IMG/VR virus record: IMGVR_UViG_3300035181_001974
DNA from: a virus
DNA: 64,000 nt
Reading direction: 5' to 3' (one strand)
Positions 36,885 through 47,228 of the stretch are shown in pieces (position 1 is the stretch's first letter; every line of letters starts with the position of its first letter). The notes beneath the pieces are model-generated. The model did not search any database and was not told where the DNA came from. It saw only the letters and a list, made by a program, of their open reading frames with translations. Made by a program: the position numbers and the translations under genes.

Positions 36885-36920
36885 ACTGTGCAATGAGTTG
36901 CACACCCGCGAGCGCGGGCT
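36885..36920 (+). promoter_or_regulatory. operator copy 1: TGCAATGAGTTGCA followed by CACCCGCGAGCG
   Basis: Palindrome TGCAA-N4-TTGCA plus a fixed 3' extension, repeated at 38.56, 43.65 and 47.2 kb. Confidence 0.55.
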
Positions 36921-36934
36921 GCCTACTTAGACCC

Positions 36935-37282
36935 ATGAGTGCAGCACTGTTGAAGGAGTTCATCAAGGAGACGTTGGATCTCCTCGACGAGAAGAAGCGC
37001 CACGCCAAGCCCGGCGGGCCGCGCACCGACATCGGGGCAGTGCGCCAGCTCAACCCTGAGAAGTTCCGCAACAGGGTCCGCGCCGCCGTAAACGGTCACG
37101 GGGGCGATGCTGCCAAGGCAGCCAGCGAGCTGGGCGTTGCCAAGCGTACCCTCTATTACTATCTCGATGATGAGAAGTCCCTGCACACCGTCAAGACCTC
37201 AGACGAGCGTGCCGAGGAAAAAGAAAAGAAGGACAAGGAGAAGGCGGAACGCCTCCGCAAGTCTCAGGCTAAGAAGCCGTAA
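36935..37282 (+). CDS. Fis-like helix-turn-helix DNA-binding regulator
   Basis: C-terminal AASELGVAKRTLYYYL is Fis/NtrC-type HTH; internal Met chosen because a conserved operator lies upstream. Confidence 0.55.
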   Translation: MSAALLKEFIKETLDLLDEKKRHAKPGGPRTDIGAVRQLNPEKFRNRVRAAVNGHGGDAAKAASELGVAKRTLYYYLDDEKSLHTVKTSDERAEEKEKKDKEKAERLRKSQAKKP

Positions 37283-37611
37283 AAACCCCGGTGTTGAGAT
37301 GGGGTTGACCGGGGAGCAGAGACTTTCTCTTCCTCTCCCTGTCATTGTTAAACATGCATCTGTCTTACGAGATCTACGGTCAACTTATAGAACGTAGATG
37401 TTGGCTGACATTTCTCCCGCAAAGGAGAAGAATCACGAGCTAACATCGTCATTGAAAGAGAGAAACGACCTCTTTTGACTTGATCTGGCAGGTTCTTGCA
37501 ATGCTACGTAGATCCAGTCTTGTCAAGGCATCTGTCAACTGACGACTTCGACTAGTTGTTCCTTTACCTCCCGGCACGTGGTGTTGCCCTTGTCAGTATA
37601 TCCGTCTCTCG

Positions 37612-37660
37612 TGGAGCGCCCCGGAATCGAACCGGGTTCGGCGCTATTGGTCTCCCGTTG
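37612..37660 (-). other. tRNA 3'-half-like element (T-arm CCCGG-TTCGATT-CCGGG plus acceptor strand GCGCTCC-A) without a matching 5' half
   Basis: Canonical T-loop GGTTCGATTCC and acceptor-like stem AGCGCC/GGCGCT; no D/anticodon arms or 5' acceptor nearby; lies just after the Sak4 stop. Confidence 0.4.
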
Positions 37661-37732
37661 GCCGCGTGAGCTTGGGTCCCTAAGGACCCGTGCCCCCGTC
37701 TCTCCCGAGAATTGCGCCCCCAGATCGCGGGT

Positions 37733-38497
37733 TCAGCGCTCGTTCATGCCGAAGCTGCCCTTCTCGAAGAGCCCCTTCTCCTGGAAGCCGAGGACGTAGG
37801 CGCGGCCCGAGCAACCGAAGCGGTTCTTGGTGACCTCGAAGATGCGCTCCCCGTAGGTCTCGCTGTTCTTCTCCTGGTCGATGTAGAGCGACCCGCGGAC
37901 GTCGATCGCGTGGAGGATCCCGTTCTTGCCGGCGAATTCGCCGCTCTTGTTGACCTGTCCGATGAAGATGACGATGCCGTAGGTGCTCTTCGCCCAGTCG
38001 GTCAGCATCTCGACGCAGCGCAGCGGCGTGGCGCCATTGGTACCGTTGGAGTACTTGCCGTCGTCCAGGGTCTGCAGCGAGTCCTGCAGAATGAAGACCT
38101 GCTTCTTCGGGTTGGCCTTGCGCAGCGCGTCCGCGTGCTTCAGCAGGTCGGGCACCATGATGTCCTGGCCACAGATGAAGCCGTGCTTCAACTTCAGGCG
38201 CTCGGTCACCATGCGCACCTGGTAGAGCGACTCCTCGCCGGTGTTGTAGAGGCAGATGTTCCCCTGCCCGGTGATGGCGTCCGCCAGCTGCAGCAGCATC
38301 GTGGTCTTGCCGGCGCCAGGCGTACCGGTCAGCATCATGACGGAGCTGGGCACGAAACCCTGGCCACCAACCGCGTCATCGAACCAGGTGATGCCGGTCT
38401 TGATGCGCTGCTTCAGCTTCTCAGGCACCTCAACATCCATGATGTTGGTGCCCTGCTTCAGGCCCTTGATTCCGACGTTGAGGTTCATGCTCGCCAT
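37733..38497 (-). CDS. Sak4/RadA-like RecA-family ATPase (core-only recombinase)
   Basis: RIKTGITWFDDAVGGQGFVPSSVMMLTGTPGAGKTTMLLQLAD matches the RadA/Sms RecA domain; 254 aa with no zinc finger or Lon domain. Confidence 0.65.
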   Translation of the reverse strand: MASMNLNVGIKGLKQGTNIMDVEVPEKLKQRIKTGITWFDDAVGGQGFVPSSVMMLTGTPGAGKTTMLLQLADAITGQGNICLYNTGEESLYQVRMVTERLKLKHGFICGQDIMVPDLLKHADALRKANPKKQVFILQDSLQTLDDGKYSNGTNGATPLRCVEMLTDWAKSTYGIVIFIGQVNKSGEFAGKNGILHAIDVRGSLYIDQEKNSETYGERIFEVTKNRFGCSGRAYVLGFQEKGLFEKGSFGMNER

Positions 38498-38557
38498 ATA
38501 TCTTACCCCGTGGTGGTGGAGGTCTACAGTCTATCACGCCCAGGCGCTGATTTTCAC

Positions 38558-38596
38558 CCAGTGCAATGGGTTGCACACTCGCGAGCGCGATCAGCC
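38558..38596 (+). promoter_or_regulatory. operator copy 2: TGCAATGGGTTGCA followed by CACTCGCGAGCG
   Basis: Same palindrome plus extension. Confidence 0.5.
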
Positions 38597-38809
38597 AACG
38601 CTGAAAGTCTAGGTGACCATGATGCAGTCATCCCAGCCCGTGTTGCAGAGCTGGTAACCCGTCTGCTGGGCAAGCCGCAGCAGCTCCGACAGGTGAGTCA
38701 GGTCAAGATCGAACCCGAGAGGTGCCGCGTGGACACCCGGTCCGCGAGATGCCTGTATCGTGCTGCCTGACGAAGTTCTAGAAGGCGTTGCTCATGGTCT
38801 TATAGTACC

Positions 38810-38985
38810 CTGGGCCCATGAGCTCTTACACTTCTCGGGCCCATGAGCAACCAAAACTGTGCCCACAGGGGACCCACGGGAGGGCTTTCATGGGCCCGAC
38901 GGGGTATCTTATGGCTTGATTCTACGAATATTCTGTGCTCGCAGTGCAAACTTTGGGTTCGCTGAGTTAAACTAGAACCATGGCA
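38810..38985 (+). repeat. intergenic repeat element copy B
   Basis: GGGCCCATGAGC x2, GGGACCCACGGGAGGGCTTTCATGGGCCC, CAGTGCAAACTTTGG; ends at a GGTAGA-type box and ATG. Confidence 0.5.
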
Positions 38986-45541: not shown

Positions 45542-45653
45542 AATCATCAACGAATCTTTGCGAACTTCGTGGGTGTAAAGCACCTGCGGTGTGACATAGA
45601 TTCAACCTACAAGCTGGCACCCACCAAAACCAAGGATTCACGGAGAGAACACC

Positions 45654-46301
45654 ATGAGTGACAAGTCGGACGAGAAGACCTCGAAGATCGATGCAGCGAT
45701 TGCGGCGGCCAAGGCCCGCGCAGCGGCCAAGGCCAAGGGCGAGACCGCGACGAAGACCGCGGAGACGAAGGCGGAGAAGCCCGCGAGGGCAGCTGCGAAG
45801 CCGAAGCTCACCGACGAAGAGCGCGAGGCCCGCAAGACGAAGCTCGAGGCGGAGCGCGCGGAGCGCAAGGCTGCGAAGACAGCGGCCCGCGAGAAGGCCC
45901 GCGCCGAGAAGCTGGCAGCCCGCAAGCCGGCGCACATGAGCAAGGTCACCAAGGCAGGCGAGAAGCTTCCGCAGCTCGCGGGTGCCGCGCAGATCCTCTT
46001 CGGTGATGCGACCGCGAACCTGGGCCGCGCCGACCTGGCGAGCCTGGCGCTGCACATCCAGCACTTCAACCGCGTCAAGGCGACGGAGCGAGCACTGGAC
46101 ACGAGGATCGAGGCCGGTCATACGGTCACCATCGTTGGCGGCGACCCGCGCTTCATCGGCAAGACGGGTACGGTCACCAAGGCGCAGCGCATCCGCTGCT
46201 ACGTCGAGATCGAGGGCGTCAACAAGCCGGTGTACTGCTTCACCTCGGACGTCGAGCCACTGGCTGCGGCCGATCGTGAGGCGACGGGCACGGACGCCTG
46301 A
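45654..46301 (+). CDS. histone H1-like Ala/Lys-rich protein with C-terminal KOW-like motif
   Basis: AAKARAAAKAKGETATKTAETKAEKPARAAAKPK low-complexity N-terminus; GHTVTIVGGDPRFIGKTGTV KOW-like; SD GGAGAG. Confidence 0.55.
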   Translation: MSDKSDEKTSKIDAAIAAAKARAAAKAKGETATKTAETKAEKPARAAAKPKLTDEEREARKTKLEAERAERKAAKTAAREKARAEKLAARKPAHMSKVTKAGEKLPQLAGAAQILFGDATANLGRADLASLALHIQHFNRVKATERALDTRIEAGHTVTIVGGDPRFIGKTGTVTKAQRIRCYVEIEGVNKPVYCFTSDVEPLAAADREATGTDA

Positions 46302-46329
46302 TTCGCAGAAGTTCACAAGGTAAACTCCA

Positions 46330-46520
46330 ACAGTCAAGGCCGCGATCCTCACTGGGTCAGGCCTTGACCCCGTTTCGGGCCACGGTCACAGCCCCCGTGG
46401 GACCCACGTGAGTGCTTTCATGTCAGGGTAATGGGTTACCCCACTTGGGCCCGTGAGTATTCACGTGTGTCATTGTGCAAATCGTCTGTGACTTGGGCCT
46501 ACAATAGGCCTCGCGGACAA
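46330..46520 (+). repeat. intergenic repeat element copy C (includes a TCAAGGCC/GGCCTTGA hairpin)
   Basis: GGGACCCACGTGAGTGCTTTCATG, GGGCCCGTGAGTATTCACGTG, TGTGCAAATCG. Confidence 0.5.
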
Positions 46521-46648
46521 GTTAGAAGCGCATGGCCCGCCTCGAGCTGGTGCTGATGACGCTCGTGGATCACGTGGCGTGGCTGGTGGGCACCGTCCAA
46601 TGTCCGTTGCGAGTGCAAATTCACATCTGAACATGGTAGGATAATCTC

Positions 46649-46867
46649 ATGGTCAACCAAGGCACCCGTCGGATCCTCGAGAGCACGGCCTGGGACATCA
46701 CGATCGGCAGCGGCATGGCCGAGGAGTGGGCTGAACTGGGCCACGAGCCCGACCACGCAGTCCGCCGCACTGTCTCGGGCGTGCTGGGCCGTGATCCCAG
46801 CCACGAGGAGTGGGACTACTTCTGCCGAGAGTGGCGTGATTGCCTCCAGCGTGCCGCGCAGCTGTGA
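46649..46867 (+). CDS. hypothetical protein
   Basis: GGTAGGATAATCTC box before the ATG. Confidence 0.45.
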   Translation: MVNQGTRRILESTAWDITIGSGMAEEWAELGHEPDHAVRRTVSGVLGRDPSHEEWDYFCREWRDCLQRAAQL

Positions 46868-46973
46868 ACTTCAACAACGAAACAAGGTACAACAGAGACA
46901 TGGCCAAAACCCGCGAGCAGATCAAGCAGGCGATCCTCCACGAGGGGCCCTTCAAACGCAAAGAGAAGAAGTG

Positions 46974-47186
46974 ATGGCGATCCCGAAGATTGAGTTCCCG
47001 ATGACGCAGGACCAGGTCGCGCCCGCGGTTCAGAGCGTCCTGGAGCACATCAAAGCGTTGGAGACCGAGCTCAAGCTCAGTCGAGCGCTGCTCGCTGAGA
47101 CTCGCGAGTGGTGCTCCCACCCGGGCCTCGGGAACAATGCCAGCTGCCCGTGCTGCGGCAAGTACTTCAGTCGCTACGACGACTGA
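46974..47186 (+). CDS. small Cys-cluster protein (CPCCGK)
   Basis: Start MAIPKIEF; GTGATGG overlap with the upstream mini-ORF. Confidence 0.4.
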   Translation: MAIPKIEFPMTQDQVAPAVQSVLEHIKALETELKLSRALLAETREWCSHPGLGNNASCPCCGKYFSRYDD

Positions 47187-47193
47187 CCCAAGC

Positions 47194-47228
47194 AGTGCAA
47201 TGAGTTGCAAGCCCGCGAGCGCTAGAAG
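47194..47228 (+). promoter_or_regulatory. operator copy 4: TGCAATGAGTTGCA followed by AGCCCGCGAGCG
   Basis: Same palindrome plus extension. Confidence 0.5.

Follow-up and report, generated by a model that had tools for sequence, protein, structure and literature searches.

A polar palindrome with promoter-like half-sites and its candidate helix-turn-helix regulator in an uncultured giant phage

The window, as the whole 64,000-nucleotide (64-kb) stretch of DNA analysed here is called (IMG/VR virus record IMGVR_UViG_3300035181_001974), stems from an uncultured giant phage and contains four copies of a palindrome, one of which lies upstream of g57, a gene for a small protein of helix-turn-helix (HTH) type. 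The palindrome, hereafter PAL, is a 14-base-pair (bp) core with the consensus GTGCAAC-GA-GTTGCAC, and its sequence, GTGCAACGAGTTGCAC, is the candidate target DNA of g57. Comparison of the sequences of related loci suggests, with a probability that we put at about 0.6, that PAL is the cognate DNA site of g57, the two constituting a regulator-operator pair that would serve autoregulation and the modulation of a few early promoters. The features that would distinguish such an otherwise ordinary pair are the half-site, which mimics a promoter -35 region, and the strict polarity of the site.

Within the window, TGCAA-N4-TTGCA has exactly four matches, starting at 36889, 38562, 43643 and 47196 and all on the plus strand, where 0.03 are expected from shuffled sequence. 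The full 26-nucleotide (nt) motif (26-mer), TGCAAYGRGTTGCA-NN-CYCGCGAGCG, recovers only the same four sites even at three mismatches (0.00 expected). All four are intergenic, by codon-usage gene calls as well as by the stored gene calls of identical contigs, and a similar density of the motif in coding DNA is not seen. The four co-oriented intergenic copies of the preliminary description of this DNA are thereby confirmed, with the start of copy 4 corrected from 47197. The 12 nt that follow the palindrome read CACCCGCGAGCG at copies 1 and 3, CACTCGCGAGCG at copy 2 and AGCCCGCGAGCG at copy 4, the portion constant across the window copies being C-Y-CGCGAGCG; beyond the 26 nt the flanks are dissimilar, except for C-W-G directly before the motif in three copies. 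As the octamer CYCGCGAG alone is frequent in coding DNA (about 40 sites in the window, mainly coding), only the composite motif is special. Neither the exact 26-mer nor a 24-mer pattern had a match in IMG/VR and Joint Genome Institute (JGI) metagenome contigs, collections without the window's own contigs, and no variation was gained from the three contigs with an identical g57 protein, which match the window at 99.99-100% identity.

The evidence that carries the assignment is the co-occurrence of PAL with g57 in relatives. Twelve g57 homologues at 44-60% identity were found in a large protein collection, and every contig retrieved for them bears PAL, as do one IMG/VR contig with g57 and most of 27 further metagenome loci with g57. 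Eight sequences encoding g57 (the window plus seven loci; 136 kb) hold 21 PAL copies, against a chance expectation from base composition of about 0.1 per 136 kb, whereas 22 loci without g57 (372 kb) hold eight, seven of them on one locus, L011 (IMGVR_UViG_3300016471_000965). The further metagenome loci with g57 (27 loci, 147 kb) contribute 42 copies and the single IMG/VR locus four; overall, 69 PAL copies were assembled from about 38 loci with g57. Conversely, queries with the AAA_5 and the KaiC-like ATPase retrieved about 27 related IMG/VR loci, none of which encodes g57, and PAL was present among these only in L011/L012 (seven copies) and as a single copy in L006. Ancestry alone does not explain this link, since the lineages with g57 are no nearer to the window than those without: identity to the window is 69-74% versus 72-79% for g58 and 55-61% versus 51-63% for g62, the latter in the nearer loci without g57, while the most distant such loci reach 39-42%. 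Moreover, g57 is the only window protein that is confined to PAL-bearing loci and present in all seven of the g57-encoding relatives searched; g71 and g77 are also restricted to PAL-bearing loci, yet occur in just two relatives and one, respectively. No g57 homologue was detected in 185,579 bacterial and archaeal species genomes.

PAL also usually lies on or next to the gene of its putative regulator, an arrangement that classically marks a cognate, autoregulatory site. At copy 1 the palindrome ends 32 nt and the 26-mer 20 nt before the ATG of g57 at 36935, in the divergent region shared with the AT-hook gene g56 on the minus strand, as previously described. A -10-like hexamer, TACTTA, is conserved ahead of the g57 homologues in about 24 of 27 lineages, as (A)TACTTA 5-6 nt before the ATG, and PAL overlaps the -35/spacer portion of this promoter-like region in the window and in at least seven other lineages. 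Two arrangements occur: in L036, L038 and L041 PAL is situated 11-12 nt upstream of TACTTA and its distal arm, GTGCAA, takes the -35 position, while a gap of 20-28 nt in the window, L045, L060/69 and L061-63 places the proximal arm there instead. At least 11 other lineages have PAL after g57, 8-25 nt past its stop codon and often between convergent genes.

The third link is to a promoter-like element, P1, which stood out by its uniformity when the 40 nt before every gene were compared and reads GTG[A/C]A[A/T/C]-N18-(G)GTAGGAT-N6-ATG, idealised as GTGCAA-N18-TAGGAT-N6-ATG. A position weight matrix gives 34 matches in the window, concentrated between 34.5 and 53 kb, with a fixed 36-nt geometry that ends at the ATG and without a Shine-Dalgarno sequence; about 30 near-identical motifs of the form GTG[AC]A..-N18-GGTAGGAT-N6 stand ahead of early genes, mainly small ORFans (for example at 39132-39170, 39458-39496, 46613-46651 and 48915-48953). 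Because an extended -10-like TGG-TAnnnT ends 6 nt before the ATG and a Shine-Dalgarno sequence is absent, we infer that P1 sites are promoters of leaderless early mRNAs, arranged in a dense array of transcription units. The same architecture is found in related contigs, including those of relatives without g57. Each PAL arm together with its flanking base equals the -35-like hexamer of P1, (G)TGCAA, so that a protein on PAL would cover the -35 region or border on it. PAL is enriched 3.5-fold near P1 sites, with several arms supplying the -35-like hexamer, and in relatives PAL also occurs at about -50, -80 and -110 of P1 sites. The features concerned, with the positions of the PAL centres relative to the window promoters, are:

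36035 to 36700, minus strand: g56, AT-hook (GRP-repeat) protein, divergent from g57, with its own P1 at 36701-36736
36743 to 36756, no strand assigned: inverted repeat CATTTGCATAAATG (CATTT-N4-AAATG), single copy, centred at about -49.5 of the g56 P1
36889 to 36914, plus strand: motif copy 1, PAL as TGCAATGAGTTGCA and then CACCCGCGAGCG; right arm TTGCAC (36898-36903) at the -35-like position of the g57 promoter-like region, PAL centre at -39.5
36924 to 36929, plus strand: TACTTA, -10-like hexamer, 5 nt before the g57 ATG, with a putative leaderless start
36935 to 37282, plus strand: g57, 115 amino acids, Fis/NtrC-type HTH with invariant PGGPRTD...LGVAxRTLYxYL, candidate PAL-binding regulator
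38522 to 38557, minus strand: P1 of g58 (37733-38497), a KaiC/RecA-like ATPase
38562 to 38587, plus strand: motif copy 2, 4 bp upstream of the -35-like GTGAAA of the minus-strand g58 P1, PAL centre at about -47.5
43612 to 43647, minus strand: P1 of g67 (43156-43611)
43643 to 43668, plus strand: motif copy 3, between two minus-strand genes; left arm TTGCAA is the -35-like hexamer of the putatively leaderless g67 P1, PAL centre at about -38.5
47196 to 47221, plus strand: motif copy 4, 9 nt past the g74 stop codon, PAL centre at about -75.5 relative to the g75 P1
47242 to 47277, plus strand: P1 of g75 (47278-47643)

These positions suggest how the pair might act. Bound at PAL, g57 would occupy or abut the -35 region of the adjacent promoters: in its own, weak promoter-like region a PAL arm would provide the -35-like hexamer, which suggests negative autoregulation, and the same would hold for g67, while at g58 the site would lie 4 bp upstream of the -35-like hexamer and at g75 about 40 bp upstream. 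The four genes g57, g58, g67 and g75 might in this way form a small early subset that is regulated apart from the other approximately 30 P1 units. With respect to the sign of regulation, the positions that overlap -35 argue for repression; a Fis-like activator bound upstream would likewise be compatible with the positions of about -50, -80 and -110 in relatives. The earlier proposal of an HTH operator with a small, possibly autoregulated regulon thus gains from the co-occurrence with g57, the overlap with the gene's own promoter and the three further promoter-like sites, the binding itself being predicted from sequence; a simple symmetric dyad, on the other hand, does not describe the site, as its centre is polar.

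The AlphaFold2 model of g57 is a helical HTH fold with a predicted local distance difference test (pLDDT) score of 81, and the top Foldseek matches of this model are the NtrC-family DNA-binding domains 2m8g, 4l5e and 3e7l and many Fis chains, 2m8g at a probability of 0.94 and a root-mean-square deviation of 1.7 over 41 columns. The profile of the g57 family had as its only match in the PDB a designed 'HTH_8cm' peptide (E = 0.2). The neighbouring g56 product was considered as the PAL-binding protein and rejected: the gene is also present in phages that lack PAL, and the PAL site is GC-rich.

Several observations weigh against PAL and g57 as a simple regulator-operator pair. In sequence, g57 scores 17.8 bits (E = 0.0027, residues 50-75) against the Pfam family HTH_8 (PF02954), below the gathering cut-off of 22, and all Foldseek E-values exceed 0.6 and are non-significant, so that the Fis-like HTH of the preliminary description is plausible, not established. 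The 12-nt extension is not accounted for by g57 binding at PAL. In relatives, many PAL copies are found between convergent genes or at a distance of 80-120 bp upstream of P1, and simple promoter occlusion is therefore not the whole explanation. L011/L012 carry their seven copies near P1, four of them at -45 to -50, and no g57 homologue was found in the 21 kb examined; either another protein can use the site or g57 is located elsewhere on that contig. Finally, the PAL centre reads G-R on the strand of g57 in 68 of 69 copies, or in 36 of 37 clusters of similar flanks. A symmetric dimer acting at adjacent promoters does not predict such a genome-wide orientation, which leaves room for a direction-dependent function.

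Recognition of PAL as duplex DNA in a sequence-specific manner is favoured, as the arms are invariant, the copies share no common fold, terminator and Rfam matches are lacking, copies 1 and 2 would lie upstream of the putative transcription starts and a copy inside a gene is spelled in rare codons. This copy is conserved within the g56-like AT-hook coding sequence of relatives (L032:3688, L033:5646, L034:3802 and L056:2028), where it encodes VQPVA (within PVQPVA) as GTG CAA CCN GTT GCA, and since the joint probability of these A/T-ending codons is about 0.001 at window codon usage, selection on the DNA sequence rather than on the peptide is indicated. An RNA hairpin functioning in processing, stability, antitermination or termination would be in line with the folding of copy 1 into two adjacent hairpins (-16.9 kcal/mol), and polarity could reflect a strand-specific RNA. 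However, the folding z-scores are -1.8, -0.5, +1.0 and +0.3, the minimum-energy fold differs among the four copies, none is followed by a T-run or called as a terminator, no Rfam match was obtained and covariation is not visible in the invariant arms; copies 1 and 2 are located in divergent regions and the copies in minus-strand arrays would be transcribed as the opposite strand. RNA hairpin and intrinsic terminator were rejected on the z-scores, the missing T-run and the lack of terminator and Rfam matches, and we regard them as very improbable. No more credible is a rightward promoter in the 26-mer for another polymerase or sigma factor, with TTGCA as a sigma-54-like -12 element or TGCAAC as an extracytoplasmic function (ECF)-like -35 element, for which the single orientation and the conserved length of 26 nt, both known from phage-specific promoters, and the location of copy 1, 20 nt before g57, could be cited. 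The sigma-54 consensus is TGGCAC-N5-TTGCW, with GG and GC 10 nt apart. In the window, the -24 position holds GT or TG instead of GG, and at each of the four copies the spacing from TGCA to TTGC lacks one base. Transcription from copy 3 would run antisense into three genes and that from copy 2 into 350 nt without a gene, while in relatives the extension is absent and PAL occurs between convergent genes or in coding sequence. A survey of the 98 predicted window proteins detected 34 Pfam families, and the 25 listed include no sigma factor or polymerase. Sigma-54 and ECF-type promoters were rejected.

Two alternatives accept PAL as a DNA site and assign it differently. PAL could be bound by another phage or host factor, possibly the reader of the -35-like GTGCAA of P1, with g57 merely one of the regulated genes. 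The L011/L012 sites would fit, some lying at -45 to -50 of P1 without g57 in the DNA examined, as would the identity of the half-site with the -35-like hexamer of all relatives, those without g57 included. PAL nevertheless tracks g57 and no other gene across about 60 loci and adjoins it in most lineages, and the centres in L011 (GA, TA, TA, TA, CC, TC, CC) are variable and show no polarity, in contrast to the fixed G-R in phages with g57, which suggests that L011 has a different reader; we judge this alternative unlikely. Quite unlikely as well, and a shade more doubtful, is that PAL, with g57 as its recogniser, is a polar signal for a process that has a fixed direction along the genome and is other than initiation of transcription, such as replication or priming, nicking, packaging, recombination or a one-way roadblock. 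The shared direction relative to g57 in 36 of 37 site clusters and the sites between convergent genes and inside coding sequence speak for it. Serine-recombinase crossover sites consist of inverted arms around an asymmetric 2-bp core, and PAL resembles such hix/gix-like sites in layout; in T5- and phiKMV-like phages the consensus sites of single-strand nicks are few and polar. The 25 Pfam families listed, of the 34 detected in the window part of the 309-kb genome, contain no resolvase or other recombinase; two families of HNH-type endonucleases, HNH and HNH_5, are among them. Against this alternative also stand the 3.5-fold enrichment near P1, with arms that in several cases supply the -35-like hexamer, and the location of the site on or beside a regulator promoter, which is the layout of classical autoregulation.

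The arms, 6-7 bp long, are invariant in the 69 copies around a GA or GG core, and in the window as in the relatives the co-orientation with g57 is independent of the strand of the neighbouring genes: copy 3 among minus-strand genes and copy 4 among plus-strand genes have the same orientation, which is not tied to local transcription. As a speculation that we consider improbable on balance, PAL may be, in place of a conventional operator, a direction-sensing genomic signal, with a 2-bp asymmetric core kept co-oriented over tens of kilobases and in dozens of lineages, that is read by a g57 complex in a process of fixed direction. Equally conjecturally, such a process might block transcription or replication in one direction, nick one specific strand or recombine a cassette, and the -35-mimicking half-sites would couple it to the shut-off of early transcription.

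The preliminary description considered the extension fixed; it is indeed present at all four window copies, yet it varies in sequence and is absent from the sites of relatives. CYCGCGAGCG directly after PAL is found in this phage only. In g57's own promoter region of the window, L045 and L061-63, a GC-rich palindromic box fills the gap between PAL and TACTTA; the window has CCCGCGAGCGCGGG there, L045 and L061 have CCCGCCCGCGGGG. In the g56-g57 spacer of L031, L033 and L037 a variant dyad, TGCAGACGGGTGCA, is followed by CYCGCGAG at a distance of 7-9 nt. The 12 nt on the right of PAL contain CGCG in 9 of 28 cases, those on the left in 0 of 28 (background 5.7%), while a second set of loci shows no enrichment (3 of 31); other lineages have conserved flanks of their own, such as CTGTCCCC-NGGGG-PAL-AAGGTCAG. 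From these sequence comparisons we conclude that the extension probably arose from the promoter region of g57 itself, as an addition specific to this lineage; it may provide further contacts, attract a second factor or be a side effect of site copying. A motif common to relatives was rejected, as their sites do not contain it, and so was a -10 element or P1-type spacer, because only copy 1 has a -10-like hexamer downstream. The exact 12-mer CACCCGCGAGCG is found once without PAL, at 49107-49118 on the minus strand within the coding region of g80, which may be chance.

Among known systems, autoregulated HTH repressors of phages and plasmids whose palindromic operators overlap promoters, such as lambda CI/Cro at OR and P22 c2, resemble the proposed pair in a small HTH gene beside its own dyad, an overlap with -35 or spacer and a few extra copies at early promoters. 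The differences are an unrelated, uncharacterised protein family, single sites in place of tandem triplets, a half-site equal to the promoter's -35-like hexamer, polar and co-oriented sites, many of them just past the regulator's stop codon, and no sign of lysogeny in the phage DNA examined. With Escherichia coli Fis and the C-terminal domains of the NtrC family (HTH_8), g57 shares the signature GD..KAA..LGV..RTLY and its top structural neighbours. Fis and NtrC-family domains bind dyads as dimers, the NtrC site, TGCACC-N5-GGTGCA, being TGCA-ended, and Fis, a repressor of its own promoter through overlapping sites, is an activator when bound upstream in helical phase. In contrast, g57 falls below the HTH_8 cut-off, has neither an AAA+ nor a receiver domain, possesses an extra N-terminal helix, the invariant PGGPRTD and a long charged C-terminal helix, and its candidate dyad has TGCA cores 10 bp apart. 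The stoperators of cluster A mycobacteriophages (L5, Bxb1) are likewise multiple, short and conserved repressor sites in short intergenic gaps with a strong orientation bias. Stoperators are, however, asymmetric 13-mers oriented along transcription, while PAL is a near-palindrome whose orientation is fixed to the genome, as window copies 3 and 4 demonstrate. P1, not PAL, recalls the T4 middle promoters, where a MotA box replaces -35: many early or middle units pair a standard extended -10 with a phage-specific hexamer, GTGCAA, at about -30 to -35, though homologues of MotA or AsiA were not identified and P1 is present in relatives without g57. Searches of the literature for the motif string and for giant-phage leaderless promoters yielded nothing of relevance.

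In a clade of uncultured giant phages whose early genes are nearly all ORFans, the pair would provide a testable regulator and site, together with a defined architecture of the early promoters, presumably leaderless. With an operator that consists of two inverted copies of the promoter's own -35-like hexamer, one small protein would have a simple means of controlling its own gene and, once more abundant, of dampening an entire class of promoters. For a quasi-palindrome, such near-absolute co-orientation is unusual and, if functional, would point to a direction-dependent step in giant-phage development; otherwise the system would be an ordinary phage regulatory module.

The g56-g57 locus has further features. 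The two genes are syntenic in relatives. The CATTT-N4-AAATG repeat reported for their spacer is present, once, and was rejected as a second regulon motif as the window holds no further exact copy. The CATTTGCATAAATG repeat occupies the position that PAL takes at the g56 homologue in L011 and is the most AT-rich point of the spacer; it could be a site for the AT-hook protein itself. An exact 12-mer, GAGATGGGGTTG, at 36765-36776 and 37296-37307 on the plus strand brackets the PAL-g57 unit, its copies lying in similar stretches of about 40 nt with a possible hairpin followed by a T-rich run. This hints, from the repeats, that g57 and PAL may have moved as a cassette, which would fit the patchy distribution of g57 among relatives.

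Some observations concern single promoter-like units. In 38944-39149 a P1 site scoring 25.5 leads to a 5-codon open reading frame (ORF), ATGGCAAGCGCCCCTTGA, and the next ORF, of 51 amino acids, starts from TTG at 38994 in another frame; one added C in a CCCC run would fuse the two, which could reflect a real frameshift or a shared assembly error. At 44008-44045 on the minus strand, ahead of g68, terminator and promoter are fused: the 3' arm and T-run (GTGTGC ATTTTATCCC) of a 17-bp GC-rich terminator-like hairpin form the -35-like region of the g68 P1. An alternative route to a palindromic -35 region is seen in L005 (IMGVR_UViG_3300035670_013237), which lacks g57: between 3500 and 18400, 12 promoter-like units carry GTGCAAA in the loop of a perfect GGGGGT..ACCCCC hairpin, with an A6 tract before it and TGGTACAAC after it. 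To the right of copy 2, about 350 nt (38588-38943) have no convincing ORF and no Rfam match and contain two copies of GGGCCCATGAGC and an inverted TCATGGGCCC; the stretch may be a non-coding RNA or a degraded gene.

Contigs encoding the identical g57 protein extend up to 309 kb. No cultured relative was found: a megablast search of 22 kb against cultured phages was empty, and tblastn with GroEL and the AAA_5 ATPase gave distant relatives only. The window encodes GroEL (15430-17037), AAA ATPases, IF-1, an L7/L12 C-terminal domain, a GH25 lysozyme and tRNAs, IF-1 being notable beside early genes of leaderless appearance; ADP-ribosylglycohydrolase, papain-like protease, NUDIX, EamA transporter and fatty-acid hydroxylase are also among the listed Pfam families. 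Unusual for a phage is an 859-amino-acid protein (30710-33289, minus strand) with a major vault protein shoulder domain (E = 3e-28), vault repeats and SPFH/Band 7. A tRNA cluster at 63486-63979 comprises tRNA-Ile(GAT) and two tRNA-Tyr(GTA) of 84 and 90 nt, lengths that imply a long variable arm of bacterial type and thus point to a bacterial host.

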